A stretch of DNA of 64,000 nucleotides, taken from positions 32,001 through 96,000 of the IMG/VR virus record IMGVR_UViG_3300032305_003086; one strand, written 5' to 3'. The notes beneath the pieces are model-generated. The model was not told the origin of the DNA. It searched no databases and was given only the letters and a program-made list of their open reading frames with translations. Shown here one piece after another: positions 21,195-58,185 of the stretch. The translations under genes were made by a program, and so were the position numbers. This DNA comes from a virus. Lineage: Duplodnaviria > Caudoviricetes. How positions within the stretch are numbered: position 1 is the first letter of the stretch; every line of letters begins with the position of its first letter.

Positions 21195-21653
21195 ATGACA
21201 ATTAAAACAAAAAATGGAAATGATATTGAATTATCCGGCGAGCTATCGATTGCGAATTCTACCAAAATTAATAGTAATGGAATTGAATTAAGCCCTGGGG
21301 TAAGCATTACTTTTGCAGATGGAAGTCAATTAGAAAATGCAATTGGAGTCTCAGATCGTTTACATTCAATCGGCAATTCAGAAACAACAAAAACATTATC
21401 ATTAGCAGATGGAAATGTTCAAACGTTAATATTAAATCAAAATTGTATTTTTACAATGCCTTCGGTAGTACAAGCTGGAAATTTAACTATGATAGTAAAT
21501 CAGACAGCATCATACACAGCGACATTTAATACTGTCAAATGGTCATCAGGAATTGCCCCTACTATAACCACCGGGGCTGGAAAAATTGACATTTTAAGCT
21601 TCATATCAGATGGGGTTAGTTGGTATGGAGGCGTCATACAAAACCTATCATGA
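21195..21653 (+). CDS. Putative virion structural (tail/fibre-associated) protein
   Basis: GNVQTLIL...W-x-x-G-x-APT...DILSF...DG-x-x-WYG module common in phage tail proteins. Confidence 0.6.
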   Translation: MTIKTKNGNDIELSGELSIANSTKINSNGIELSPGVSITFADGSQLENAIGVSDRLHSIGNSETTKTLSLADGNVQTLILNQNCIFTMPSVVQAGNLTMIVNQTASYTATFNTVKWSSGIAPTITTGAGKIDILSFISDGVSWYGGVIQNLS

Positions 21654-24115
21654 GACATTGGCATTTTTCTATTTTTAGACCAGTTTATATACCGACACCC
21701 GGCCCTACGCTAACTAGGCCTACACTAACCAATACACCTACACTAACCAATACACTTACACTAACCAATACACTTACACTAACCAATACGCCTACACTTA
21801 CACTAACCAATACGCCTACACTTACACTAACCAATACACTTACACTAACCAATACGCCTACACTAACCAATACGCCTACACTAACCAATACGCCTACACT
21901 AACCAATACGCCTACACTAACCAATACGCCTACACTTACACTAACCAATACGCCTACACTAACCAATACGCCTACATCAATTTATGTTTCTGCCGCAGTT
22001 CAAGGATCTACAATTTCAAATTTCAATTTGAAATTAATTAAAAATAATCAAATTATGGATTATTTTATTAATGTTTCTGGGACGTCATCTCAATTAGCCT
22101 ATTCAGATATAAATCAAATATTAAATCGTCAACCTGATGCTATGATAGCTGAGAGCAATGATAACACCATAGATCTAGACACCGGTTTGCATGTAGATTT
22201 CAAATTTTACTATCCATTCGATTTAATTAGTGGAAAACTTGTAATTGGAGGAAGTATAATATTCTCAATAGTTTCTTCTATTGTTTACTCTTTGGTTGAA
22301 AAAGGAAATAATATTACGAGCGCTATTTCTAAAGCAAATTCAAATTTAGGTGTAAATTTTTCTAATTACATAACAGAAAGTTATGATAATTATATGGAAG
22401 GTAACGAAAAAGAAGCATTAGATAGATTGCAAGTTGTTTCTGTTATTACTAAAAATACTATAGACAATTCTACTAACGAGCATTTATTCGATTCATTTGC
22501 AGATGTTATCGACTCCGGAGCCTCTTCTTCTGATCCAGACCAGTTTTTATCAGATAATTTTTCTTCTGTGGTGCAAAAGGTGCAAAAAAAATCTTTAGGA
22601 CTATCTGATAATCAAAGCCTTCCATTGTATGAAACTCTGATCACAGAAAATATAGCTCAAAATGCAAATCAAGCAGCACAAAAACATATAACAGATGCAA
22701 AAGACATTTCTTCTTTAGTTTATGCGAATAATTTAATTGAAAATTCAAATGTTAGATTTGATGATAATACTGGTGTGGTTTTTGATGAAATTAATTTTCA
22801 AAATAACGTCCTAGTTAATCAAATATTCCCAACACCTACTCCCACTCCAACAATAACACCAACCCAAACTGCTACTCCAACAATTACTCTCACAGCTACT
22901 GTTAGCTCTACTGTGACATTGACCAATACACAAACTAATTCTCCGACAATTACCTCTACAAATACTTCAACCACAACATCTACTCCAACTCCAACTGTAT
23001 CTTCCACATTGACCGCAACTCCAACAATTACACCAACAACAACATCAATAGCTGGATTTAATTCATCAATATTAATTACAGATGAAACCAACGGAAATAG
23101 CAGTTATGGAATAACACTTATTGGAAAATATGGATCTCAACTAATATTTAATAATATTGCGGACTATAATTCTCTACCAAATAGTATGCAAGTTTATATT
23201 AGTGGAGTTGCTGCTTTGGGCGTAACTTACTCTGATGTGTATGAGAATTCGGCTATAATTATAATATATGATAGTGTTGCATACAGTGCTAATTTAACTA
23301 ATGGAAGATTAGATCTTTATAAGAACACACCAACTCCAACGCCAACAAATACAATGACAAATACGCCGACCACAACATCAACCTCGACTACAACGCTTAC
23401 CCCTACAATAACAGCAACAAATACAAATACTACTTCTTTAAGTGCAACTCCAACATTAACTAGCACTCCAACAATTACATCTACAAGAACTCCTAGAGCA
23501 ACAAGAACAGCAACCCCAACATCAACACCAACAATTACAAAAACTTCGACATTAACATCAACCCCTACACCAACACCAACACTAACAAATACCATGACAT
23601 TAACAAATACCAATACCCCCGCTGCCACTGCAACACCTACGCCGACTTTAACAAACACACAAACATGCACGCCCACAATCACAGCAACAAAAACATTGAC
23701 TTCTACATCTACCGCAACTCCTACAAAAACAAGCACTCCAACAATTACTAGCACTCCAACTCAAACTCCAACAATTACTAGCACTACAACACTAACTCCA
23801 ACAAATACAACAACTCCAACATTAACTGCAACCACCACGCCAGAATTCGATACTACAATAGTTATTTCAGATTCGCCTTACGGCAGTTCATCAAAATCAG
23901 GAGTAACCATTTCTGCTCTTTATAATGCAACTTTAAGTTTTAATTCAATAAATACCACGCAATCACTACCAGCTTCTATGTCTGTTTTCATTGACGGAAC
24001 CCCAGTTGCAAATATAACATTCCCGAATGATTATGATTCTAAATCATTATCATTAATTATAAATAATTTGAAATACAGAACAACATTCCAGAAAAATACT
24101 AGGGTGGACTTATAA
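21650..24115 (+). CDS. Thr/Pro-rich mucin-like putative virion protein
   Basis: Three long T/P tracts and two internal ~90-aa repeats ending RLDL/RVDL; ATGA overlap with the upstream gene gives start 21650. Confidence 0.75.
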   Translation: MRHWHFSIFRPVYIPTPGPTLTRPTLTNTPTLTNTLTLTNTLTLTNTPTLTLTNTPTLTLTNTLTLTNTPTLTNTPTLTNTPTLTNTPTLTNTPTLTLTNTPTLTNTPTSIYVSAAVQGSTISNFNLKLIKNNQIMDYFINVSGTSSQLAYSDINQILNRQPDAMIAESNDNTIDLDTGLHVDFKFYYPFDLISGKLVIGGSIIFSIVSSIVYSLVEKGNNITSAISKANSNLGVNFSNYITESYDNYMEGNEKEALDRLQVVSVITKNTIDNSTNEHLFDSFADVIDSGASSSDPDQFLSDNFSSVVQKVQKKSLGLSDNQSLPLYETLITENIAQNANQAAQKHITDAKDISSLVYANNLIENSNVRFDDNTGVVFDEINFQNNVLVNQIFPTPTPTPTITPTQTATPTITLTATVSSTVTLTNTQTNSPTITSTNTSTTTSTPTPTVSSTLTATPTITPTTTSIAGFNSSILITDETNGNSSYGITLIGKYGSQLIFNNIADYNSLPNSMQVYISGVAALGVTYSDVYENSAIIIIYDSVAYSANLTNGRLDLYKNTPTPTPTNTMTNTPTTTSTSTTTLTPTITATNTNTTSLSATPTLTSTPTITSTRTPRATRTATPTSTPTITKTSTLTSTPTPTPTLTNTMTLTNTNTPAATATPTPTLTNTQTCTPTITATKTLTSTSTATPTKTSTPTITSTPTQTPTITSTTTLTPTNTTTPTLTATTTPEFDTTIVISDSPYGSSSKSGVTISALYNATLSFNSINTTQSLPASMSVFIDGTPVANITFPNDYDSKSLSLIINNLKYRTTFQKNTRVDL
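21722..21973 (+). repeat. Coding minisatellite: 13 x 18-bp acactaaccaatac(gcct/acct/actt) with three 6-bp acactt inserts
   Basis: Direct reading; encodes (TLTNTP/L)n. Confidence 0.9.
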
Positions 24116-27100
24116 TGTTGAATATAACTGAAAATTCTAAAATTATACAGTACCTTGGTCCACTAGTTGAAATTTCTAGTCTGCCGGGCAATATTTCTAC
24201 TATATTTGGGGTTATAAATGGAAATTATGTTTCTTATAGAAATGATGTTCCTTACAACTCGCTAAATAGTCTTGCTACAGGATCTAGTTATCTAATATTC
24301 AGTTCACAAACGCCTTACCAATTATATTCAGATCCAGATGCATCTGTCTCGGGACAGTCTGTTGTTTTTCAGTATCAATTCGTTTATTATGAAGGGCCTG
24401 ATTTAGATTTACAGACCAATTCATTCATAACAGACAAGGTAAACAAAATATATTCCTGGAAGAACGGAAGTCCAATAGGTTGGATAAATGGCGAATCTCT
24501 AAATTCTCTTAAAACTTTAGCAGGAGGAAATTCTTATCTTTTTATAAATAAAATAGAAAAATTACCATATTTGCTTTGGGGCCAAGTTTCCATTACTCCT
24601 ACTGTAACTAAAACTTTAACAGCAACTCCAACCTTAACATCAACCCCAACATTGACTCCTGTGGCTACTCAAACTAGCACCGTAACATTCACTCCTACTC
24701 AAACCACAACACCAACACTAACAAGCACATCAACAGTAACTCCCACATTAACTACTACAAAAACACAAAAGAGCACGCCTACTATAACTCCAACAAAAAC
24801 ATCCACAAATACACTTACAAACACTCCAACCCAAACAAACACAAACACTCCAACAATTGTTACACCTACACCTACTCAAACTCAAACGCAAACTCCTACA
24901 ATTACCTCTACCAACACGCAAACATCGACTCAAACTCTAACACCAACACAAACACCTACTCCAACATTAACTTCAACTCAAACTTTAACATCCACTCCAA
25001 CTAACACACAAACTTTAACCAGAACTCAAAATACCACCCCTACACTAACATCAACAAAAACTCTAACTCCTACCTACACATTAACACCAACAATAACGTC
25101 CACTACGACATCAACATCTACTCCCACTTTGACTTCCACTTTAACCGCTACTCCTACACTGACATCAACGACAACTTTAACATCTACTCAAACTTCAACT
25201 CCAACTACAACCGCAACAGCAACATTAACTCCAACAATTACCTCTACAAAAACTCAAACTTCTACACCCACACTAACAAGAACAATTACAAATACAAAAA
25301 CCACTACCTCTACACCGACCAATACACCAACAACAACTTCAACAAGTACAAACACTCCTACTATTACACCTACACTAACCAATACATTTACATACGCCGG
25401 TGAGAAATTCATATCTTTACAAAATTCAGATTCAAATTATGTGAATCTAAATGGTGCCGGTACTGATATGTTTCCTTACTCTGGCTTTGTTGGAGGAAAT
25501 AGGGAAGACGGAACAATAAGAAATGTGGTGTTTTTAGTTAATAAAAATGGAACTCTTAGATATAGCCTAACAGCTTCCAGCGAAAGAAATTATGATTTTG
25601 GCATCATCAAGAAAAACGGATCTCCTGTCGATTTGGTCACCGGAGACGACAACATATCAGGAAACATACAAGTAATTATTGGCGACACAATAGAAATATC
25701 ATACCAAAAAGATTCAAGTGATTATTCTGGGGATGACGGTGTTTATTTGGATTATATAGCAGTAAATTATCCAACACCAACCCCAACGCAAACGCTCACT
25801 GCGACTTTTACTTTAACAAGCACTCTCACACAAACCCAGACTCTTACTGCCACACAGACACTGACACCAACACAAACACTTACAAACACACCAACTCAAA
25901 CTGTTACATCTACGCCTACAAGTACAATTACAAGCACTCCTACTCAGACTTTTACTTCAACGCCAACTCAAACCATAACTTCAACACCAACTCAAACTGT
26001 TACATCTACTACTACAAGTACCGTTACAAGCACTCCTACTCAAACTTTAACACCTACTCAAACAACCACATCAACACCAACTTCAACAACAACTTCAACA
26101 GCAACACCAACTACAACTCCTACTATTACACCAACTATTACATTGACTTCAACAACAACAGCAACACAGACTCCGAATACCCAAAACACAATAGACCCTT
26201 CAATATTAGATTACTTTATATTTAATGAAAGCTTGAGAAATGATTATAATCATTATCAACTTTTATATTCAAACAATGATAATTTCAATGATTTTGGTTA
26301 TTTTGAAAAAGCTTTGAATTTAGAGTACTTACTTGTGGGCGGAGGTGGTGGTGGCGGTATGGATATGGGCGGAGGAGGTGGTGGCGGCGGAGTTTTAACC
26401 GGAACAATGACCTTAAATAATTCTATTACCACAACAATCACTGTAGGCTCTGGCGGATGGGGTGCTCCTTCAGGAAATGGTGGATACCGTGGCGATGGAG
26501 TTGGTCCCCAACGAAACACACATCAATTTACAATTGGGGCAACAAATGGAGCGAACTCTTTAGCTCTGGGACTCACCGCTTTTGGCGGAGGTGCTGGTGG
26601 CAGTTCTTATTATGATTATTCGCCCGGAGCCTCAGGATCTAACGGTGGATCAGGCGGTGGCTCCTCAGGTTATAGCAATGGAAGTACAAGAGCAGGCGGG
26701 TTAGGAACATTAGGACAAGGATTCAATGGAGGACAAGGCGGAGGTCAATATTATTCTGGTGGAGGTGGCGGAGCAGGAGGACCTGGTATTAATTCTCCAA
26801 GTAGACCTGATGGTGGACCAGGAAAATTGAGTAGTATTTTAGGATCTACTTTATATTGGGGAGGTGGCGGTGGTGGTTCTGCTTACACTGCTGGAACAGG
26901 AGGAAACGGAGGAATTGGTGGGGGCGGTGGTGGAGCAGTTGGTATTACAATAGGAGGAAATGGTTACAACAATGGCTCTGCTGGTGGTGGCGGAGCAAAT
27001 AATTCTCAAACTAACAAACCAGGAGGAAATGCAGGAGCAAATACTGGTGGTGGTGGGGGAGGTGGTAGTCACTATAATTTCACAAACGCAGGTGGCAATG

Positions 27101-28662
27101 GAGGAAGCGGAATAGTTGTATTATGCTACTATGGACCGCCACTATCTAATATAAGCGCAGGACTAACATATACACTCAATACTACATTTAGACCTGGTTT
27201 CAATTTGTATATTTTCACTTCAGGAACAGGCCAAATTACTTTAAATACTGAACAGCCTGTGATCAGACCAACACCAACGCCAACAGCTACGCCAACAGCT
27301 ACGCCAACAGCCACAGCTACGCCAACAGCCACAGCTACGCCAACAGCCACAGCTACGCCAACAGCCACAGCTACGCCAACAATAACACCAACACAGACGG
27401 TTACGCCAACACTCACCATAACTAATACCCCCATACCAGTTACGCCTACTCCATCAGCTAGTCCAGCAGCAGCTAACAATGGTATTATTATACAATCTAA
27501 TGTTTCTAACACTCCAAGAGCATTAGTTGGTGGTGGAGTAACTTATAACCCAACCTTTATCAATAACGATTATAGACAATATTATAGTCAAATAGTAGAT
27601 CGTTGGAATTATACAATGAGTAATGGAAGATTACCTTATGATAATATATGGAATAACTATTATTTGTTTAATGGCGGTGGAACATATTATTTTAACTTTA
27701 TGATTCCAACAGTACTTACAAAGTATAGATTATGGAATCCTTTCAAAGCAAATATGCCATGTCCCGGATTTGGTGGACCTTATGAAATAAGGTCATCTGT
27801 TACAGGTCTTGGATATAATAGATATTTAGACTTTGGTAATCAAACGCCTCAAGCTTGGAAGATACAAGGAAGTAATGATGATGTTAATTGGGTTGATGTT
27901 GATGTTAGAACAAGTCAAGCAAGATTGCCGTATGCAACTAGCGATATACCGGCTAATAGTGAATACGGAGAGTTTTCTATTTCTTCTCCAACAGCATACA
28001 AGTCGTACAGATTTGTTGTTACAGGAAGAGGAAGAGACGGGTATGGCTGTAGCAAGAGTGGATGTTACTACGATTGGGTATTAGGAGAAATGCAACTTTG
28101 GGGATATGAAAGTCCTTCTTCCACAAGCGCCATTCATGGATATTACTCATGTCTACCCACGGCAAAATATGTAAATGCATCGCAAGGATTTGACACCTCT
28201 TCTTTTAAGAATGCATTTTTCCAATCTGGTGGTTTAGGGGGAGATGATAGAAATAAATGGAATGTATTTGGACAAGGAACACCAAATAGAAGTTGGAATA
28301 ATTATTGGGAAATTCCATACAAAAATATTGGAACAACCGAAACAGGATATTTAGGCTTTGATTACGAAGTTGTAATCAATTCATATTCTCTAAAGTCAGT
28401 GATTGCCCAAGGTGGTGCATTAAATTATCTGTCTTCGTGGGAATTATATGGATCAAATAATTTTTCTTCTTGGAGTTTGTTAGACAGTAGATCTGGCGTT
28501 GGTTCAAATGTTATCTCCACAAATTATAGTTTTAGTAATTCTGTTGGCTACAAATACTATAAATTCATAGCAACAGATGGAACAAGGCGCTGCGATAAGG
28601 ATGGTTGTAGTTGGGGGAATGTAAGAATTTCTGACATACAACTCAAAGGCTATATAACATAA
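24115..28662 (+). CDS. 1515-aa mucin-like (Thr/Pro), Gly-rich, discoidin/F5-8C-like putative virion fibre protein
   Basis: Two very long T/P tracts, a poly-Gly domain (YLLVGGGGGGG...GGSGIVV) and two W-x-(I/L)-x-GSN...W...Y-x-x-Y-(R/K)-F domains. Confidence 0.75.
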   Translation: MLNITENSKIIQYLGPLVEISSLPGNISTIFGVINGNYVSYRNDVPYNSLNSLATGSSYLIFSSQTPYQLYSDPDASVSGQSVVFQYQFVYYEGPDLDLQTNSFITDKVNKIYSWKNGSPIGWINGESLNSLKTLAGGNSYLFINKIEKLPYLLWGQVSITPTVTKTLTATPTLTSTPTLTPVATQTSTVTFTPTQTTTPTLTSTSTVTPTLTTTKTQKSTPTITPTKTSTNTLTNTPTQTNTNTPTIVTPTPTQTQTQTPTITSTNTQTSTQTLTPTQTPTPTLTSTQTLTSTPTNTQTLTRTQNTTPTLTSTKTLTPTYTLTPTITSTTTSTSTPTLTSTLTATPTLTSTTTLTSTQTSTPTTTATATLTPTITSTKTQTSTPTLTRTITNTKTTTSTPTNTPTTTSTSTNTPTITPTLTNTFTYAGEKFISLQNSDSNYVNLNGAGTDMFPYSGFVGGNREDGTIRNVVFLVNKNGTLRYSLTASSERNYDFGIIKKNGSPVDLVTGDDNISGNIQVIIGDTIEISYQKDSSDYSGDDGVYLDYIAVNYPTPTPTQTLTATFTLTSTLTQTQTLTATQTLTPTQTLTNTPTQTVTSTPTSTITSTPTQTFTSTPTQTITSTPTQTVTSTTTSTVTSTPTQTLTPTQTTTSTPTSTTTSTATPTTTPTITPTITLTSTTTATQTPNTQNTIDPSILDYFIFNESLRNDYNHYQLLYSNNDNFNDFGYFEKALNLEYLLVGGGGGGGMDMGGGGGGGGVLTGTMTLNNSITTTITVGSGGWGAPSGNGGYRGDGVGPQRNTHQFTIGATNGANSLALGLTAFGGGAGGSSYYDYSPGASGSNGGSGGGSSGYSNGSTRAGGLGTLGQGFNGGQGGGQYYSGGGGGAGGPGINSPSRPDGGPGKLSSILGSTLYWGGGGGGSAYTAGTGGNGGIGGGGGGAVGITIGGNGYNNGSAGGGGANNSQTNKPGGNAGANTGGGGGGGSHYNFTNAGGNGGSGIVVLCYYGPPLSNISAGLTYTLNTTFRPGFNLYIFTSGTGQITLNTEQPVIRPTPTPTATPTATPTATATPTATATPTATATPTATATPTITPTQTVTPTLTITNTPIPVTPTPSASPAAANNGIIIQSNVSNTPRALVGGGVTYNPTFINNDYRQYYSQIVDRWNYTMSNGRLPYDNIWNNYYLFNGGGTYYFNFMIPTVLTKYRLWNPFKANMPCPGFGGPYEIRSSVTGLGYNRYLDFGNQTPQAWKIQGSNDDVNWVDVDVRTSQARLPYATSDIPANSEYGEFSISSPTAYKSYRFVVTGRGRDGYGCSKSGCYYDWVLGEMQLWGYESPSSTSAIHGYYSCLPTAKYVNASQGFDTSSFKNAFFQSGGLGGDDRNKWNVFGQGTPNRSWNNYWEIPYKNIGTTETGYLGFDYEVVINSYSLKSVIAQGGALNYLSSWELYGSNNFSSWSLLDSRSGVGSNVISTNYSFSNSVGYKYYKFIATDGTRRCDKDGCSWGNVRISDIQLKGYIT
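27283..27378 (+). repeat. Coding tandem repeat: 2 x 12-bp acagctacgcca plus 4 x 18-bp acagccacagctacgcca
   Basis: Direct reading; encodes (TATP)2(TATATP)4. Confidence 0.9.
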
Positions 28663-50773: not shown

Positions 50774-51157
50774 ATGGGCAAAACTAGTAAAGAAATATTA
50801 AATTACAGACATGAATGTGTAGATATCTATAAAATGTCCAAAGGTTGCGAAGAATGTGGATATAATACTCATCCTTACAACTTATGTTTTGACCACCTAC
50901 CCGGTGAAGAAAAGTCAGAACATGTAAAAAATGGATATTCAAAAAGATCAAGTGCAGGCGGAATGTATAGACTTTATGCAAAATCACACTCCATAGAAGA
51001 TTTAGTTGGAGAAATGAAAAAGTGTCGAGTTTTATGCAATCATTGCCATATGAAGCATACTCATGGAATCAATAATAAAAGATGCATAAATAATATTTCT
51101 AAAAAAATATCTTCTATAGAAGATTTAGAAAAAATACTTAGAGAATATGAAAATTAA
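50774..51157 (+). CDS. HNH-like Zn-finger endonuclease
   Basis: CEECG, FDH, KCRVLCNHCH. Confidence 0.75.
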   Translation: MGKTSKEILNYRHECVDIYKMSKGCEECGYNTHPYNLCFDHLPGEEKSEHVKNGYSKRSSAGGMYRLYAKSHSIEDLVGEMKKCRVLCNHCHMKHTHGINNKRCINNISKKISSIEDLEKILREYEN

Positions 51158-51591
51158 TTTACGTCTAATTTTAGATATATGATTTTAGGCGGATTATCGT
51201 AATAAATATTTAGGTAATTGCAAGCCCAAATTTTTTGTCCCGCCTCTGTTTTTATATTTTCAGAAAAAGCATCATATATCCATCCATCAAAAAAATTATT
51301 TTTAAGTTCAAGTCTAATGTCGCAATCTAAAAATTGTTCTTCTGAAAAGTAAAGATAAAGACCGTCTTTTGAATCTAAATTTTTAGACTTACAACCAAAT
51401 TGTATGGCCTTATCCGCTCCAGCAACTAAAGGAGATAAGGAAAATTCTGTTAGTGTAGCAGGTGCTAAAATATATTTTCCCTTGTCATTTTGAAAATACC
51501 AATTTCCTTTTTGGTCTTTATTTATAAAAACTTTGTTGATATCGTTGTTTTCTTTTTTTTCTCCAAATATTGTGTGATTTTTATAACTCAT
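51154..51591 (-). CDS. Hypothetical protein (DUF6717-like)
   Basis: PLVAGAD...L-x-FS...GW-x-Y...WAC-x-x-L-x-x-YY-x-x-PPK-x-IY; start set to ATG 51591. Confidence 0.5.
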   Translation of the reverse strand: MSYKNHTIFGEKKENNDINKVFINKDQKGNWYFQNDKGKYILAPATLTEFSLSPLVAGADKAIQFGCKSKNLDSKDGLYLYFSEEQFLDCDIRLELKNNFFDGWIYDAFSENIKTEAGQKIWACNYLNIYYDNPPKIIYLKLDVN

Positions 51592-52231
51592 CCTTAAATT
51601 CCTTTTTATAAAATTCTTCAACATCAGGAGTTATTGATGGTCTATATAAATCAAAATTAAAATTTGAAATATTCTTTTTTGCAAAATCAGATAAAACTAC
51701 ATAATAAGGAGATATTAATTTATTTGAAACCCATCTTTCAAAATCTTCTTTTTTTATAGAAGATTTATCTTTATTTTTCAAAAATTCTTGAGTCTTTTTT
51801 AATTCAATTTTAATTAATCTTGGACTAGTAACAAGGCCCAAATCAGAAGAGGTTTTTATTTCATTTAATTTTTTATCAAATTTTCTTTTCCATAATTTCC
51901 ATCTTTTCCAAGCTTTATCACCAGTAAGTATTTGAGGTTCAATTAGAGCATGGACTTTTTCATGTTTCATTAATTTTAGCATTTGCAATTGAGCGACAAT
52001 ATAAATATAATATTCTTTATCACTATCTAGTAAGCCTTTTGTTTCTCTGACTAATTTATAGCAATATTTAAAAAGAGTAGTTTTCCTAGGGTCTTTGCTT
52101 TTACTAATTTTAATATGTCTTTCATTTGGAAATTCTTTTTTACATAAATCTTGCCACATTAAACAGATTTTAAAAGCTTTTGCTTCTAAATCTGTCATGT
52201 TATACTTCAAAATTAATTCTAGCTCATTCAT
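51581..52231 (-). CDS. Hypothetical phage protein
   Basis: 216-aa ORF, divergent from the structured intergenic region. Confidence 0.7.
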   Translation of the reverse strand: MNELELILKYNMTDLEAKAFKICLMWQDLCKKEFPNERHIKISKSKDPRKTTLFKYCYKLVRETKGLLDSDKEYYIYIVAQLQMLKLMKHEKVHALIEPQILTGDKAWKRWKLWKRKFDKKLNEIKTSSDLGLVTSPRLIKIELKKTQEFLKNKDKSSIKKEDFERWVSNKLISPYYVVLSDFAKKNISNFNFDLYRPSITPDVEEFYKKEFKDEL

Positions 52232-52329
52232 TGGTGTTGACTATTCTATTCGAAACGATAGAATTAAGCAAACGAAACAACTTTCAAGATACTATTATAT
52301 TTTAACTTTCTAAAACTTTCTAAACGAGT

Positions 52330-52790
52330 AATTTTGATCTCCGTTGTGTTTTCCTGCACCTTGCACGGGCTAATTTATTAGCATAAAATCTCGAAAGAGA
52401 AAAAGGAACAGGATGCGTTTGGCAAACCATAGGGTTAAAAACTCCCCTAGTGTTTCTAAGCAGTAATTAATGAAAGTTAATTACATACCTTTGACGAGGT
52501 ATATCAGGTGCTGTATTACTTTAAACCAAATGAATATTTTCCCGAAAGGGTTTTCCATGTAACCAGACAGTAGTTGATCTGTCATGGGGCGTAGGGTCAT
52601 GGTCAAAACGGAAATAACGTTGAAAAAATATTCAGTATTAAGTTAAAGTGAAGAAACTGAAAAGGTAGAAAAAGATCAAACAAATAGAATTGTCCCTAGA
52701 AGTTCTCTATAAGTGCGGTTCCAATATCTAACTTAAAAAGAATATTTCCTCAGGGATACGCCCCAAGTGCGCCAATAACGTTAATATTAA
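52330..52790 (+). ncRNA. Candidate large structured non-coding RNA, family unrecognised
   Basis: No long ORF. GAAA tetraloop hairpins at 52389-52400, 52463-52484 and 52541-52550; nested long-range helices; 9-bp pairing 52585-52593 with 52757-52765. GNRA loops and G-U pairs favour the + strand. Boundaries are approximate. Confidence 0.65.
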
Positions 52791-52796
52791 TTAATC

Positions 52797-53078
52797 ATGA
52801 AAGAACATAGAAGAAACCTAAAAAGATTAGCTAAAAGATTTTCTATTTCGATTGATGAAGCAATTCAAAAATTTTATAATACACAAACAACAAATAAAAA
52901 TATTATTTATTCTATAAAGAAAAAAAGAAATAAGGGAATTAATTCTGGTTTGGTCAAAAATAAATTAAATAAAGAAGAACTAGAAAAACTCAAAGAAAAG
53001 AAATTAAAATTTATTAGAGATTCGAAGAGAGAATCCAGATTGAAAAATATTGTAAAGCCGAAGACAAAAGTAGATTAA
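52797..53078 (+). CDS. Small Lys/Arg-rich hypothetical protein
   Basis: 93 aa, strongly basic. Confidence 0.55.
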   Translation: MKEHRRNLKRLAKRFSISIDEAIQKFYNTQTTNKNIIYSIKKKRNKGINSGLVKNKLNKEELEKLKEKKLKFIRDSKRESRLKNIVKPKTKVD

Positions 53079-53105
53079 TGTGAGAGTTAAGATTATAATG
53101 CCCGA

Positions 53106-54404
53106 ATGTCAGAAATTGCTGAAATATTAGATTCGATACAGAACTCTGACGTATTTTTTCATTTTGAATCTGATTTTGTAGATTGGACTGACGATTCTTC
53201 TGTAGATTTCGCTATTCAATCCAAAGGCCAGAAATCAATAATTTCATTATGTGAGCCAAAACATATTGAAAGTTTGGCAGCAAGTTTATATTTTTATACA
53301 AAAAATTCCAATTTGCTTACTTGGAATCTAAAAAATATCTTATCTTTTTTTAGAAAAAAATCGCAGATCAATGTAAATTTTAGCAATAAAGTTTACGACT
53401 TGAGTGTTCTTTGTTCTTACTTTTCTTTGCCCAAAAAGAAACCTACGACTTCCAAGGAAGCCTTTTTTCTTTTTAATCACATTCGTAAGACTGATAGTTG
53501 GAAGTCTTTTGAAAAGTTTTATGATAAAGTCTATTACCCACTAATATCAAATGTAATTCCTAGCATAGAAACTAATCCATTAGTTGATTTGGCCGAGAAG
53601 AAATTTGTTTATTCTTATTACGAGATTGAAGGACAATCTAATGGTAGAATGAAGAATTTAAAAGTATTAAAAGACTGTTATCTTCCTCATTCAATGGGAG
53701 AAAAGCAAAAGAATATTTTAAGACTGCCAAGTGATGATAGTGTTTTTATGTATTATGATTTCAAACACATGGAAGTTAGTGTTTTAGAATGGATAACTAA
53801 AGATGCAAATTTATCTAAAATACTTGATTCAAATGTAGATTTATATAGGTCTATCTGGCAATCACTAACAAAATCTGAGGCCACTAAAGAGCAAAGAAAA
53901 ATTTGTAAAAACATATTTTTGCCTGTTATTTTCGGTCAAGGTTCAAATTCTTTATCTAAGAGGTTGGGTATAAATGAAAAATTTGCTGAGAAACTAATAT
54001 ATAAATTAGAACAAACCTTTCCTGTTGCTTTTGATTGGGTAAAATCCCAAACAGTCGATAGCAACAATTACGCGACGGACATATTCGGTAGAAGAAGAAA
54101 ATTCCAAAAAGAAGAGTTGTATAAAATTAGAAATTTTTGTATACAATCTCCATCAAATATGATTTGTTTAAGAAAACTTGTAAAACTACATGAATCCATA
54201 AACAATAAAGCAAAAATATTTTTTCATATACACGATGGCTATGCTATTGCTTGTAAAAGAAAAGATTTAAAATTGGTATTTGAACTTGGAAAAAAAGCTT
54301 TAGAAGAAGATGACGATCTGTTTCCAAATCTTAAGCTAAAGACTTCTTGTCATTTCGGTGAACATTTGAATAATTTAAAAAATATTAAAGAGGTTATAAA
54401 ATGA
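53106..54404 (+). CDS. Minimal family A DNA polymerase-like protein
   Basis: NGR, motif A YDFKHMEV, motif B RKICKNIFLPVIFG, FGRRR, NFCIQS, motif C HIHDG; only 432 aa. Confidence 0.85.
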   Translation: MSEIAEILDSIQNSDVFFHFESDFVDWTDDSSVDFAIQSKGQKSIISLCEPKHIESLAASLYFYTKNSNLLTWNLKNILSFFRKKSQINVNFSNKVYDLSVLCSYFSLPKKKPTTSKEAFFLFNHIRKTDSWKSFEKFYDKVYYPLISNVIPSIETNPLVDLAEKKFVYSYYEIEGQSNGRMKNLKVLKDCYLPHSMGEKQKNILRLPSDDSVFMYYDFKHMEVSVLEWITKDANLSKILDSNVDLYRSIWQSLTKSEATKEQRKICKNIFLPVIFGQGSNSLSKRLGINEKFAEKLIYKLEQTFPVAFDWVKSQTVDSNNYATDIFGRRRKFQKEELYKIRNFCIQSPSNMICLRKLVKLHESINNKAKIFFHIHDGYAIACKRKDLKLVFELGKKALEEDDDLFPNLKLKTSCHFGEHLNNLKNIKEVIK

Positions 54405-54967
54405 AAGCTATACAGAACTCGTTTCCAGTTACAGAAGAAGAGTATCTTATTTTAGATAGTAAATTTGGCGAATTGTGTGAGTATCAAGCCTGGCAATTAT
54501 TGAAAAAAAATACAAGGAATAATCATACTGATAGTCAAGAAGATATAGCTCAAGATATGAGAATGGCTTTGCTTAGAGCCGCATCTTATTATAAAAGACA
54601 ATGCTATATCGAAAATGCTTTAGAACTTTGTAGAAAATATGCTAAAGATGAATTTATAAAATCCGTAGTTAAACAGTTATCTAATTTATGGAAAAACAAA
54701 ACTCGTCATGGAGCTAATCGTCAAAAATTTGGGCTGTATCAAGAAAAAATGCTGGACAAACTCATTAAATGTTTAGTTCCTATAAAAGAAAGACCTCATA
54801 AAAAAGCTTCTTTGGTCATGGATACTAAATTTATAACTTATTGTAAAGCTATAACTTGGAATGCTCAAAAAAGCCTTGGCAAGAGAATAACAAGAGAAAA
54901 ATCGATTAGAACAGGAATGGTCTCAATATCAGAATTTGATTATCTAGGCGGTCAAAAAGAACAATGA
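54401..54967 (+). CDS. Phage sigma factor (region 2 only, gp55-like)
   Basis: EDIAQDMRMALLRAA resembles region 2.2; KFITYCKAITWNA resembles region 2.3. Confidence 0.55.
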   Translation: MKAIQNSFPVTEEEYLILDSKFGELCEYQAWQLLKKNTRNNHTDSQEDIAQDMRMALLRAASYYKRQCYIENALELCRKYAKDEFIKSVVKQLSNLWKNKTRHGANRQKFGLYQEKMLDKLIKCLVPIKERPHKKASLVMDTKFITYCKAITWNAQKSLGKRITREKSIRTGMVSISEFDYLGGQKEQ

Positions 54968-55128
54968 AAATAGATCAAAATTGCTACTTGATTGCTTATG
55001 AAAAAGACAATGATCTTACAATAGGTTCTGCCTACATTGGAGAAACAATAGTTTCTTTAGAGCTTTGTTATAATCAAAATGAAAAATATATAAAAATTAC
55101 AACACATCCAATTGATTATGATATTTAA
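54964..55128 (+). CDS. Small hypothetical protein (54 aa)
   Basis: Not in the track. ATGA overlap with the sigma gene; MKIDQNCYLIAYEKDND...PIDYDI; fills the intergenic gap. Confidence 0.5.
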   Translation: MKIDQNCYLIAYEKDNDLTIGSAYIGETIVSLELCYNQNEKYIKITTHPIDYDI

Positions 55129-55403
55129 TCCCAAAATTCATTTCCTGTTTCATCAAAATAATGAAGAACCCATCCTTTGGTAGATGGATATTTTCTGTCA
55201 ATTTTAATTTTTCCATCATGTATTTTTCTATGGCAACAAGAACAACATGTCACTGTATTGCTAGAGGTGTATTCTCCTCCTTCGCAACCTGGAATTATTC
55301 TATGTACGTCTAACGTACAATATTCTTTATTATCACAAAAGAAACATTTTTTGTCTGTTTTTTTCTTATGGACTTTATTGATTAATTTCTTTTTTCTTCC
55401 CAT
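55125..55403 (-). CDS. HNH endonuclease
   Basis: CFFC...LDVHRI-x-PG-x-EGG-x-Y-x-x-x-N-x-VTCC-x-x-CH. Confidence 0.8.
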   Translation of the reverse strand: MGRKKKLINKVHKKKTDKKCFFCDNKEYCTLDVHRIIPGCEGGEYTSSNTVTCCSCCHRKIHDGKIKIDRKYPSTKGWVLHYFDETGNEFWD

Positions 55404-56514: not shown

Positions 56515-58185
56515 ATGCCAGATCAAGATTTTGATTTTGATGACGGAGAATTGACCGAAGAAGAAACATTTAAATTAAGTAGAAATACAAATCCTGACGA
56601 TGATCAAACCATAAAATATAATTGGACAGAAGAATTTCAAAGAAATATAATAGCTTTATTACTTAATGATCGTTGGTTCACTGTTCAGTGTAGAGATTTG
56701 ATAAATCCTAATTATTTTGTAGAGGAAGTTCATCAGCTACTCTGTAGAAATTTATTTTCCCATCTTGATAAGTGGAATATTTTACCACAGAAGTCTTTTG
56801 TTATAGAAGAAGTTCAGAGTTCAGTCGGCAACAAAGATGTAGAAATTAAGCAAAGATATATTTCTGAAACTGAAGCTCTTTACGCAAAATACGTTCCTAA
56901 TTTAGAGTCTAGGGAATATCTTTTAGAGAAAATTCTTAATTTTGCTAAATTGATGAGTTTGAAAAATGCGTTTGATACCTCTCTTCAATTGATGAAAAAA
57001 GACCCGGAAGAAGAATCCACTTGGGTCAAAATTCAGTCAGCTTTAAAAGAAGCTTTGCTTGTTGATAGAAATTTCAACGAAGGATTGAACTATTTTGAAA
57101 CATTTGAAGAGAGATTTCAAAGAATTACTAAAGATGAAGAGGCTCAAGAAAGATTCACAAGTGGATTTAAGAGTATTGATGACGCTTTATTGGGCGGCGG
57201 TCCTCATAGAGGTGAGATTTATTCTTGGATTGGTTTGAGTGGAACCGGAAAAAGCTTGGCTCTGGTTAGCGCTTCACTAAGAAATGTTCAACTGGGCAAA
57301 AAAGTTCTATATGTTTCTCTTGAAATGGACGAAGACAAAATTGCAGAACGATTTGACGCTCAAATAGCAAATATAAATATAAATGAAATTAAAGATAAGT
57401 CTGACGTGGTTATGAACGCTTTGTCTGAAAAAGTTCAAGATAAAGAAGATAAAAGACTTTTGGTCATTAAGCAGTTCCCGGCGGGCAGTATGACGGTCAA
57501 TACTTTGCGAGCATACATGCAGCAACTCTATATGATAGGGTTCACGCCAGATTTAGTAATTATTGATTACATCGGAGAAATGAAAGATTTTCCTGGGATG
57601 CCAACTTGGGAATCTAGATATAGAATTGTTAGAGATTTAAGAGGTTTGGCAACAGAAGAAGATATTTGCATATTTACGGCCATGCAGCCTAATAAAAGTG
57701 CAAGAGATGCCCAGAATAAAGAAGGCCTAGGACCCGGTGTTATTGACGACACCAATTTGGCAGATAGTTATGGTCAAATTAGACCTTTGGATGGTTGCTG
57801 GTCAATTAATCAAATGCATCAAGAAAAAGAAGCCGGAGTAGCCAGAATATTTGTAATTAAGCACAGGCATGGTAAAAGTAGGTTTACTTTTCATGTTGAA
57901 TATGATGCTAAACTTAATGATAAAGATGATAAGCACGTAGGCACTTTGGCTATGAATGAAATCTCTGCCGCTGAATACGACAGGATTTGGAAGATACACC
58001 AGATGAATACTGTGACCAAAGTTTCTGACGAAAATAGCCAAGAGAAAAAAGTTTGGAATAAAATGAAGGGCAAGGACAAGAATAAGAATAAGTTTTCAAA
58101 CGATGCTGGTTATAATAATCAAGACTTAGATGAATCAGATAACTTAGATCAACCTGACAATTTACAAGGAGAAAATCATGAGTGA
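56515..58185 (+). CDS. Replicative DnaB-like helicase (T4 gp41-like)
   Basis: GLSGTGKS, YVSLEM, IIDY, TAMQ, LADS, K-x-RHG. Confidence 0.92.
   Translation: MPDQDFDFDDGELTEEETFKLSRNTNPDDDQTIKYNWTEEFQRNIIALLLNDRWFTVQCRDLINPNYFVEEVHQLLCRNLFSHLDKWNILPQKSFVIEEVQSSVGNKDVEIKQRYISETEALYAKYVPNLESREYLLEKILNFAKLMSLKNAFDTSLQLMKKDPEEESTWVKIQSALKEALLVDRNFNEGLNYFETFEERFQRITKDEEAQERFTSGFKSIDDALLGGGPHRGEIYSWIGLSGTGKSLALVSASLRNVQLGKKVLYVSLEMDEDKIAERFDAQIANININEIKDKSDVVMNALSEKVQDKEDKRLLVIKQFPAGSMTVNTLRAYMQQLYMIGFTPDLVIIDYIGEMKDFPGMPTWESRYRIVRDLRGLATEEDICIFTAMQPNKSARDAQNKEGLGPGVIDDTNLADSYGQIRPLDGCWSINQMHQEKEAGVARIFVIKHRHGKSRFTFHVEYDAKLNDKDDKHVGTLAMNEISAAEYDRIWKIHQMNTVTKVSDENSQEKKVWNKMKGKDKNKNKFSNDAGYNNQDLDESDNLDQPDNLQGENHE

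Follow-up and report, generated by a model that had tools for sequence, protein, structure and literature searches.

In a 64,000-nucleotide (nt) stretch of phage DNA (Caudoviricetes; IMG/VR record IMGVR_UViG_3300032305_003086), which corresponds to bases 32001-96000 of a 126.6 kb virus contig and is referred to below as the window, we have found a large structured RNA located directly upstream of a set of co-directional genes. They encode a small basic protein, a family A DNA polymerase (PolA) devoid of the thumb, and an all-helical protein of 188 amino acids (aa), and the gene of a 216-aa protein diverges on the other side of the RNA (Table 1). Both the RNA family and the thumbless polymerase with its small basic part are new. 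The locus had been singled out in a reading of the nucleotide sequence alone (hereafter the original prediction), and all the genes that it placed around the RNA are indeed there: the 216-aa gene on the minus strand and, on the plus strand, those of the 93-aa basic protein, of the 432-aa PolA and of the 188-aa protein, the last overlapping its neighbor by four bases.

Table 1. Features of the RNA and polymerase locus, in window coordinates
Feature	Position	Strand	Basis and remarks
Divergent 216-aa gene	51581..52231	-	Open reading frame; found by tblastn beside the RNA/PolA in every locus long enough
Promoter-like site for the RNA (-35 and -10 hexamers, 16-nt spacer)	52237..52264	+	10/12 matches; predicted start near 52271
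Promoter-like site of the divergent 216-aa gene, antisense within the 5' end of the RNA region	52294..52322	-	Promoter scan; equivalent minus-strand site in locus L126
Structured RNA, about 440 nt	52335..52772	+	Conservation; fold z -2.77; no Rfam 15 match; strand from G-U pairs
5'-domain hairpin, 5-bp covarying stem and conserved 10-nt A-rich loop	52429..52448	+	Three compensating stem versions, loop kept
Core four-way junction, 171 nt	52504..52673	+	Covariance model match, 134.5 bits; pair counts
Long-range pseudoknot, 5' strand (G-rich internal loop of the core long arm)	52585..52593	+	9 contiguous Watson-Crick pairs with 52757-52765
Long-range pseudoknot, 3' strand (C-rich, about 30 nt before the basic-protein start codon)	52757..52765	+	Same-site comparison across lineages
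Small basic protein, 93 aa, Lys/Arg-rich	52797..53078	+	Conserved core of ~45 residues, then variable Lys/Arg tail
-10-like hexamer, 6 nt before the PolA start	53094..53099	+	Read from the sequence; counterparts 6-7 nt upstream of the PolA start codon in loci L126 and L004
Thumbless family A DNA polymerase, 432 aa	53106..54404	+	Pfam DNA_pol_A, AlphaFold2 model, Foldseek, profile alignment
188-aa all-helical protein	54401..54967	+	Start overlaps the PolA stop by four bases; helical in the structure model
DnaB-type replicative helicase	56515..58185	+	Pfam DnaB_C, E 1e-15; syntenic in most relatives

A large structured RNA precedes the polymerase operon

The 565 nt between the 216-aa gene and the open reading frame (ORF) of the basic protein (52232-52796) are gene-free and fold better than shuffled sequence, and the RNA region within them is conserved more strongly than the flanking proteins. 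The structured RNA in this gap is real, and its strand is fixed by the frequent G-U pairs in its covarying helices. A covariance model built for the 171-nt core detects 19 of the 19 true loci with scores of 84-162 bits and rejects four GC-rich chance matches obtained in a pattern scan of metagenomes. The core consists of two stacked outer helices around a short GNRA-capped hairpin, a variable hairpin and a long arm, the tip of which (52566-52583) is a 5-bp stem with a conserved 8-nt loop. In the core alignment 95.6% of the cells are paired, as compared with 35-50% when the partners are slid against each other, and 18 of the 27 pairs exhibit changes on both sides, which was equalled in none of 500 shuffles; these counts are biased upward by the fitting of the alignment to the model, yet the margin is large. 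Besides, 29 columns, many of them in the joining regions, are invariant across phages whose PolA sequences are only 42-58% identical, a conservation pattern like that of aptamers or operators.

The core is connected to the 3' end of the RNA by a long-range pseudoknot. The same two sites pair also in other lineages, with different sequences (on average 6.5 contiguous pairs within a lineage versus 4.6 when the strands are taken from different lineages), and with this pairing the RNA fold stops 10-58 nt short of the first start codon, depending on the lineage. An unconstrained search for pseudoknots with G-U pairs allowed was too noisy, and was abandoned in favor of this comparison of homologous sites. 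Thus, the structured RNA postulated in the original prediction is borne out by the core covariance model, by the covariation of its pairs and by the pseudoknot.

The RNA is large and its family has been hitherto uncatalogued. Searches with Rfam 15 returned no match over the window at the gathering thresholds, only two chance snoRNA matches, both outside the RNA, at E<=10 in the region 51900-53300, and no match at E<=1 in the RNA regions of five other members. No tRNA or tmRNA was found in a dedicated scan, and a blastn search with the RNA against GenBank phages retrieved no match.

A direct repeat of 5-8 nt flanks the core (52504-52508 and 52750-52754 in the window, with equivalent sites in loci L002-L143), one copy immediately preceding the core and the other the 3' strand of the pseudoknot. 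Different lineages have different versions of the repeat, but its two copies change together (mean of 6.5 within versus 4.2 between lineages, a result matched by none of 20000 random pairings); a common complementary partner was not found. In one member (L004:3520-3760) a block of about 100 nt with the pseudoknot 3' strand is tandemly duplicated, which is not the case in its close relatives L136 and L143.

The putative promoter of the RNA adjoins the start of the divergent gene, and in alignments of other lineages a hexamer pair can be read in a comparable place. The window sequence near 52333, considered as the equivalent of the -10 box of the RNA in other lineages, was dropped, the promoter being now placed at 52237-52264. 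Conserved short words in the 5' region, considered as RNA repeats, iterons or a template, were also discarded; they fall on the -35 and -10 elements of the promoter of the divergent gene, on the opposite strand, and the 5'-region word is not enriched in the contig. No intrinsic terminator was called between the RNA and the basic ORF in the window or in L004, and the single terminator call in L126 lies inside the core. Further downstream, three lineages have the -10-like site 6-7 nt upstream of the PolA start codon, in agreement with the suggestion in the original prediction that PolA has a promoter of its own; it may be an internal, leaderless-type promoter, from which PolA would be also transcribed on its own.

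A thumbless family A polymerase and its small basic neighbor

PolA matches the Pfam DNA_pol_A profile (PF00476) with 91.4 bits (cut-off 34.3; E 7e-26), and the match is limited to residues 193-420, i.e. to profile positions 133-378 of 381; the search over the genome gave the same result. The AlphaFold2 model, calculated with 67 sequences (predicted local distance difference test score of 95), comprises an RNase H-like exonuclease fold (residues 1-127) and a single helix (132-155), followed by the palm and fingers, and in Foldseek searches it matches KlenTaq, Bst and apicoplast polymerases over its whole length with template modeling (TM) scores of 0.7-0.78. When the PolA hidden Markov model is aligned to KlenTaq, the alignment begins at profile position 178 versus chain residue 277, and the stretch before the conserved Gly-Arg-Leu motif is about 100 residues shorter in PolA. 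According to the model, it is the thumb, about 100 residues, that is missing, a structural trait on which membership of family A does not depend. The exonuclease-like domain has no match to the 3'-5' exonuclease profile PF01612, and the invariant residues of the N-terminal part form no three Exo (DEDD) motifs. The absence of a thumb and of a recognizable proofreading center, claimed in the original prediction, is hence upheld by the structural model, the KlenTaq alignment and the profile search alike.

Five residues that align to the KlenTaq motifs are invariant in the 67 sequences, namely the catalytic Asp218 and Asp377, the steric gate Glu223, and Arg264 and Lys268 of motif B; the Glu of motif C is replaced by Gly378 and the Phe/Tyr position of motif B is occupied by Leu. 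The invariance of the catalytic, steric-gate and motif B residues argues that PolA should be an active, dNTP-using polymerase. DNA_pol_A is the only polymerase domain found at the module, and no reverse transcriptase domain was detected there.

PolA is an accessory enzyme and not the sole polymerase of the phage, and judging by the gene content it is probably not the main one, because the phage encodes also the α subunit of DNA polymerase III (Pol III alpha, DnaE-type) together with DnaB, and a relative has in addition a DnaG-type primase. With a completeness of about 25% according to CheckV, the contig represents part of a huge phage with a genome of some half a megabase; the closest relative of PolA in GenBank is encoded by a 595 kb uncultured phage (LR756511.1, our locus L144), and metagenomic homologs are found on contigs of up to 633 kb. 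The Pol III alpha gene is cut by the contig end (contig positions 125256-126598, outside the window), and its full-length counterpart of 1183 aa is located at 336-340 kb of LR756511.1. The original prediction, which regarded PolA as an unlikely replicase and asked for a separate replicative polymerase and primase, was therefore right as to the former; the polymerase has been found on the contig itself and in the relative, the primase (DnaG-type) in LR756511.1 only. Profiles of family B polymerases, Prim-Pol, the beta-clamp and FEN gave no match in the contig or in LR756511.1. From its genes, the replisome of the phage is of the bacterial type, with Pol III alpha and DnaB, the DnaG-type primase being that of the relative.

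The basic protein was previously proposed to be an RNA chaperone, but a polymerase module is the better reading, because three separate lineages (P0027, P0049 and P0066) carry it as an in-frame fusion at the N-terminus of PolA, which is strong evidence that the two act together. No family could be assigned to it; the only Pfam matches, including one to the family of the T4 co-activator gp33, had E>0.03 and were not used as evidence.

Gene order and distribution of the RNA

In all 19 core-bearing loci long enough to show the neighbors, we found the same arrangement: the divergent 216-aa gene, the RNA, the small basic protein, PolA of ~430 aa and the helical protein of ~188 aa. All the loci in which PolA is 42-81% identical to that of the window carry the RNA and the same gene order. 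A scan of metagenomes with a degenerate pattern of the RNA yielded 13 real loci, and all those long enough share these neighbors, while none of the genes of the module lies beside the four chance matches mentioned above. A scan of IMG/VR with a 14-mer yielded almost exclusively chance matches and one real locus only, and a search for PolA-related loci in viral contigs found none. In all copies the RNA is co-oriented with the first gene of the operon and lies directly upstream of it; this first gene is the basic ORF in 18 loci, and in the contig the RNA is single-copy. In L142 the basic ORF is parted from PolA by a TnpB insertion, which leaves the RNA joined to the basic ORF; the TnpB-like gene (RuvC and zinc-ribbon; L142:402-1520) is on the opposite strand.

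Beyond this range of similarity the picture is different. The original prediction called for a check of whether a structured RNA always precedes the short PolA, and the answer is affirmative for PolA sequences at 42-81% identity, but not for the more distant ones. L152 (PolA 35% identical) has a gap of 62 nt only, with no room for the RNA, and in LR756511.1, from which the RNA is absent, the gene of a 387-aa protein (L144:2784-3947) stands where the RNA and the basic ORF would be. In L150 (PolA 40% identical) a seemingly diverged copy of the RNA, judged by eye only, stands directly before PolA and the basic ORF is absent; L151 has a 500-nt gap upstream of PolA; and L125 and L153 (PolA 31-32% identical) share a different conserved non-coding block. 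The core model run with the filters off detected none of L150, L151, L153 and L125. The RNA is thus not obligatory for this type of thumbless PolA, because L152 and L144 have no gap for it and the other distant loci have no detectable core. The invariant core of the module consists of the 216-aa gene, PolA and the 188-aa gene (the frame of the last being split in L152); a large subclade has the RNA and the basic ORF besides.

Some observations on these distant loci deserve mention. The non-coding sequence shared by L125 (3563-3920) and L153 (2993-3382) consists of two blocks that are 80-85% identical and occupy the gene-free gap before PolA; it probably represents a further structured RNA, or else the RNA of the window in a strongly diverged form. 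The 387-aa protein of L144 has no Pfam match; by eye it contains strings resembling motifs A, B and C (of family A or T7 RNA polymerase type), with a Ser after the Asp of motif C, and its alignment with the PolA profile in hhalign was not significant. In L152 (4817-5363) the homolog of the 188-aa protein is spread over two frames (tblastn pieces 1-115 and 114-183), possibly as a frameshifted or a split gene.

Flanking proteins and genomic setting

The 188-aa protein is the most conserved one of the module (56-90% identity where PolA exhibits 31-81%) and has 85 representative relatives in metagenomes; a tblastn search against GenBank phages retrieved LR756511.1 only. It had been called sigma-like, a tentative label. 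Its structural model gives VIA Z values of 3.8-4.3 to sigma-2 domains, the entry at rank 19 of its Atlas leads belongs to a cluster with 34% of members carrying Sigma70_r2, and one distant member has a Sigma70_r2 match below the cut-off, all of which we treat as weak leads. On the other hand, no sigma match was found in Pfam or PHROG, the profile retrieved nothing from the PDB, Foldseek of the model against the PDB gave nothing under E 0.5, and the comparison of its profile with T4 gp55 in hhalign was not significant (probability 0.1). The model and the embedding may therefore be taken as weak hints of kinship to sigma region 2.

The 216-aa gene accompanies PolA also in the distant loci L125, L144 and L150-L153, according to tblastn. 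Its product has no match in Pfam, PHROG or the PDB, profile searches included, and an Atlas lead to the T4 helicase loader gp59 is sub-threshold, below the noise level of the tool.

The DnaB gene is located about 2 kb downstream of the polymerase module. Genes resembling HNH endonucleases occur on both sides of the module (50774-51157 and 55125-55403), the second being syntenic in several relatives, and in L124 a Cas12f1-like TNB fragment lies near the module; together with the TnpB-like insertion in L142, this fragment indicates that mobile elements visit the polymerase module. Two very large plus-strand genes (831 and 1515 aa) at 21620-28662 of the window have a strongly negative GC skew; they make the minimum of the cumulative skew of the contig, and this minimum probably reflects their composition and not an origin.

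Possible roles of the RNA

With regard to the function of the RNA, we tentatively favor the view that it is a cis-acting leader which controls the operon of a two-part accessory polymerase, a reading that we consider plausible, if somewhat short of probable. In this scheme a promoter adjoining the divergent 216-aa gene would drive a leader of ~525 nt, the last ~440 nt of which would fold into a 5' domain, the four-way-junction core, a 3' domain and the pseudoknot. The RNA would act in cis as a sensor or operator, triggered by a small ligand or by one of the operon's own products, and set the expression of the downstream genes, i.e. the basic module and PolA, together with the tightly coupled 188-aa helical protein. 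PolA would be an auxiliary, probably distributive polymerase, used for gap filling or initiation. The basic module would probably provide the grip on nucleic acid that normally comes from the thumb, since it is fused to the N-terminus of PolA in some lineages and the N-terminal exonuclease-like domain of Klenow-type enzymes sits beside the exiting duplex. We prefer this reading because the RNA invariably makes up the 5' untranslated region of the gene that opens the operon, with no terminator in between, because the pseudoknot ends just before the start codon and the conservation is concentrated in the junctions, and because relatives manage the same polymerase without the RNA. What is observed is, in short, a conserved, covarying structure in the same-strand 5' untranslated region of a downstream gene, as in a leader.

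Several points weigh against it. As for an expression platform, terminator-like hairpins that would compete with the pseudoknot can be made out only by eye, in a single lineage, and the scan did not call them. Sequestration of the ribosome-binding site is not arguable, as many members have no Shine-Dalgarno sequence, and the distance from the pseudoknot to the start codon is variable. To our knowledge, a leader of ~440 nt is far bigger than the known riboswitches and protein operators. The conserved -10-like site before PolA suggests that the polymerase can be transcribed without the leader, and the lineage-specific direct repeat around the core is unexplained by simple regulation in cis.

On the whole, it is rather unlikely that the RNA is a working partner of the thumbless PolA, be it as a primer, a scaffold or a template, and not a mere leader. 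Equally doubtful is one form of such a partnership, in which a stable RNA acts in trans in a ribonucleoprotein (RNP) with the two-part polymerase, serving as a scaffold in place of the thumb or for recruitment of the enzyme, the basic module being the RNA-binding subunit. PolA is indeed devoid of the normal grip on the duplex, the basic module is physically tied to it by the three fusions, the sequence conservation of the loops and junctions is at the level of ribozymes or RNPs, and the RNA co-occurs with the basic ORF, both being present in 18 loci and neither being detected in L144, L152, L125, L153 and L151. However, L150 seems to keep a diverged RNA despite the absence of the basic ORF, the RNA is missing altogether from relatives that share the thumbless PolA, there is no terminator to delimit a discrete RNA, and the basic protein may bind DNA rather than RNA. 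We regard as improbable that the locus is an origin of the ColE1 or T4 R-loop type, where the transcript would serve as a pre-primer in a persistent hybrid, which PolA would extend until DnaB and Pol III assume the synthesis, the 216-aa protein being a possible helicase loader. The divergent promoter region in which the RNA lies is indeed surrounded by genes of replication (PolA, DnaB and, on the same contig, Pol III alpha), and PolA is accessory, as Pol I is. The pairing of a G-rich internal segment with a C-rich one near the 3' end loosely recalls ColE1 RNA II, in which a G/C interaction sets the formation of the hybrid, and the Atlas lead to gp59 would fit a loader, although it is below the noise of the tool and the profile searches found nothing. 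Against an origin, neither an AT-rich unwinding element nor an iteron array is present, the short words of the 5' region being the promoter of the divergent gene; a primer is not expected to have strictly conserved loops; and the RNA is absent from relatives with the same set of genes. The GC-skew origin sought here after the original prediction was not seen either, the minimum of the cumulative skew lying ~27 kb from the RNA locus, which is weak evidence, as the contig is only about a quarter of the genome.

More improbable yet is an independent non-coding RNA, engaged for example in host manipulation or acting as a decoy, for which the vicinity of PolA would be just a stable intergenic niche. 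Other large ornate phage RNAs such as GOLLD and ROOL do exist, PolA may have its own promoter, and in some relatives the RNA has been lost and the neighboring genes kept. Nevertheless, synteny and orientation are invariant in all copies, including the 13 retrieved by a scan for the RNA only, the RNA is single-copy in the contig, and only a few tens of nt, with no terminator, separate its fold from the next start codon. The least probable reading of all is that the RNA is a template copied by PolA into DNA, following the logic of retrons and DRT systems, with a jump between the co-varying direct repeats. The concerted changes of the two repeat copies can be explained in this way, but they could equally result from two strands competing for one partner. 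The order of non-coding RNA, small protein and polymerase is like that of retron and DRT loci, and some family A polymerases are capable of copying RNA; yet PolA is no reverse transcriptase, a domain of this kind being absent, the module is situated among replication and not defence genes, and there are relatives without the RNA.

Whichever role is correct, the phages of this clade combine a bacterial-type replisome (Pol III alpha, DnaB and DnaG-type primase) with a specialized auxiliary polymerase. The latter represents a new minimal design, a family A subfamily widespread in huge phages that does without the thumb and has a detachable basic module at the N-terminus, and it bears on the evolution and engineering of polymerases. 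Should the RNA turn out to be a primer, a scaffold or a template, the module would constitute a new kind of RNA-dependent family A polymerase system.

Comparison with known systems

Among the characterized polymerases, the closest parallel is offered by the CcPol-MP-Cch2 primase-polymerase modules of SCCmec and other mobile elements of Bacillota, in which CcPol is a truncated family A polymerase with a shortened thumb (PMC7581432; PMC10061031; PMC10201439). It has been also found that E. coli Pol I with a truncated thumb is still active, with processivity and fidelity lost (PMC7581432; PMC10061031; PMC10201439). The module described here resembles CcPol-MP in having a truncated family A polymerase, an adjacent small partner gene and a nearby helicase gene (DnaB, ~2 kb downstream), and in being auxiliary rather than a host-type replicase. 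The differences are considerable: our PolA retains an entire, if degenerate, exonuclease fold and has lost nearly all of the thumb, its partner is basic, encoded upstream and sometimes fused N-terminally (MP is an OB-fold protein), and a relative of the phage encodes a DnaG-type primase. Besides, a structured RNA has not been reported for CcPol loci. Another precedent is provided by the "broken thumb" subfamilies APEX and CHEAP, which are cellular auxiliary PolAs with the bent thumb kept (PMC10201439). They share with the phage enzyme the auxiliary character, an altered thumb, an exonuclease pocket that is inactive in some members, and Leu at the third conserved position of motif B; in contrast to them, the enzyme reported here is phage-borne, is only about 430 aa long, has the thumb reduced to one helix and has Gly in place of the motif C Glu. 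The present clade is absent from the published surveys that describe these polymerases, including the 2023 reclassification of PolA (PMC10201439).

As far as the arrangement of the locus is concerned, the order of a structured non-coding RNA, an accessory protein and a polymerase, together with the flanking repeat, is reminiscent of retrons and DRT systems. The polymerase here, however, belongs to family A and has a dNTP steric gate, its context is that of replication, and the repeat is direct and not inverted. ColE1 RNA II and Pol I present a similar combination of a structured transcript of ~500 nt, a Pol I-type enzyme and a long-range pairing of G-rich and C-rich segments, but the present locus has neither an origin signature nor an identified antisense regulator, its loops are strictly conserved, and relatives with the same genes lack the RNA. 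T4 DNA polymerase binds an operator in its own mRNA, the gene 43 operator being about 36 nt in length. The operators of T4 and RB69 also precede the polymerase gene, and the 5-bp stem with a conserved 8-nt loop at the tip of the long arm is similar to them by analogy only, the RNA described here being ~440 nt long, with a four-way junction and a pseudoknot.

In terms of architecture, the RNA is comparable to GOLLD and ROOL, the large ornate phage RNAs with a role unknown to date, and to the SAM-I and cobalamin riboswitches, by its size class, GNRA-type tetraloops, multi-helix junction and long-range tertiary pairing. None of the Rfam models of these RNAs matches the RNA region of the window at E<=10, and its association with genes is different and invariant. 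With this well-supported family of ~440 nt, one more member joins the short list of ornate phage RNAs, and the invariant gene context, which distinguishes it from GOLLD and ROOL, makes its function directly testable.

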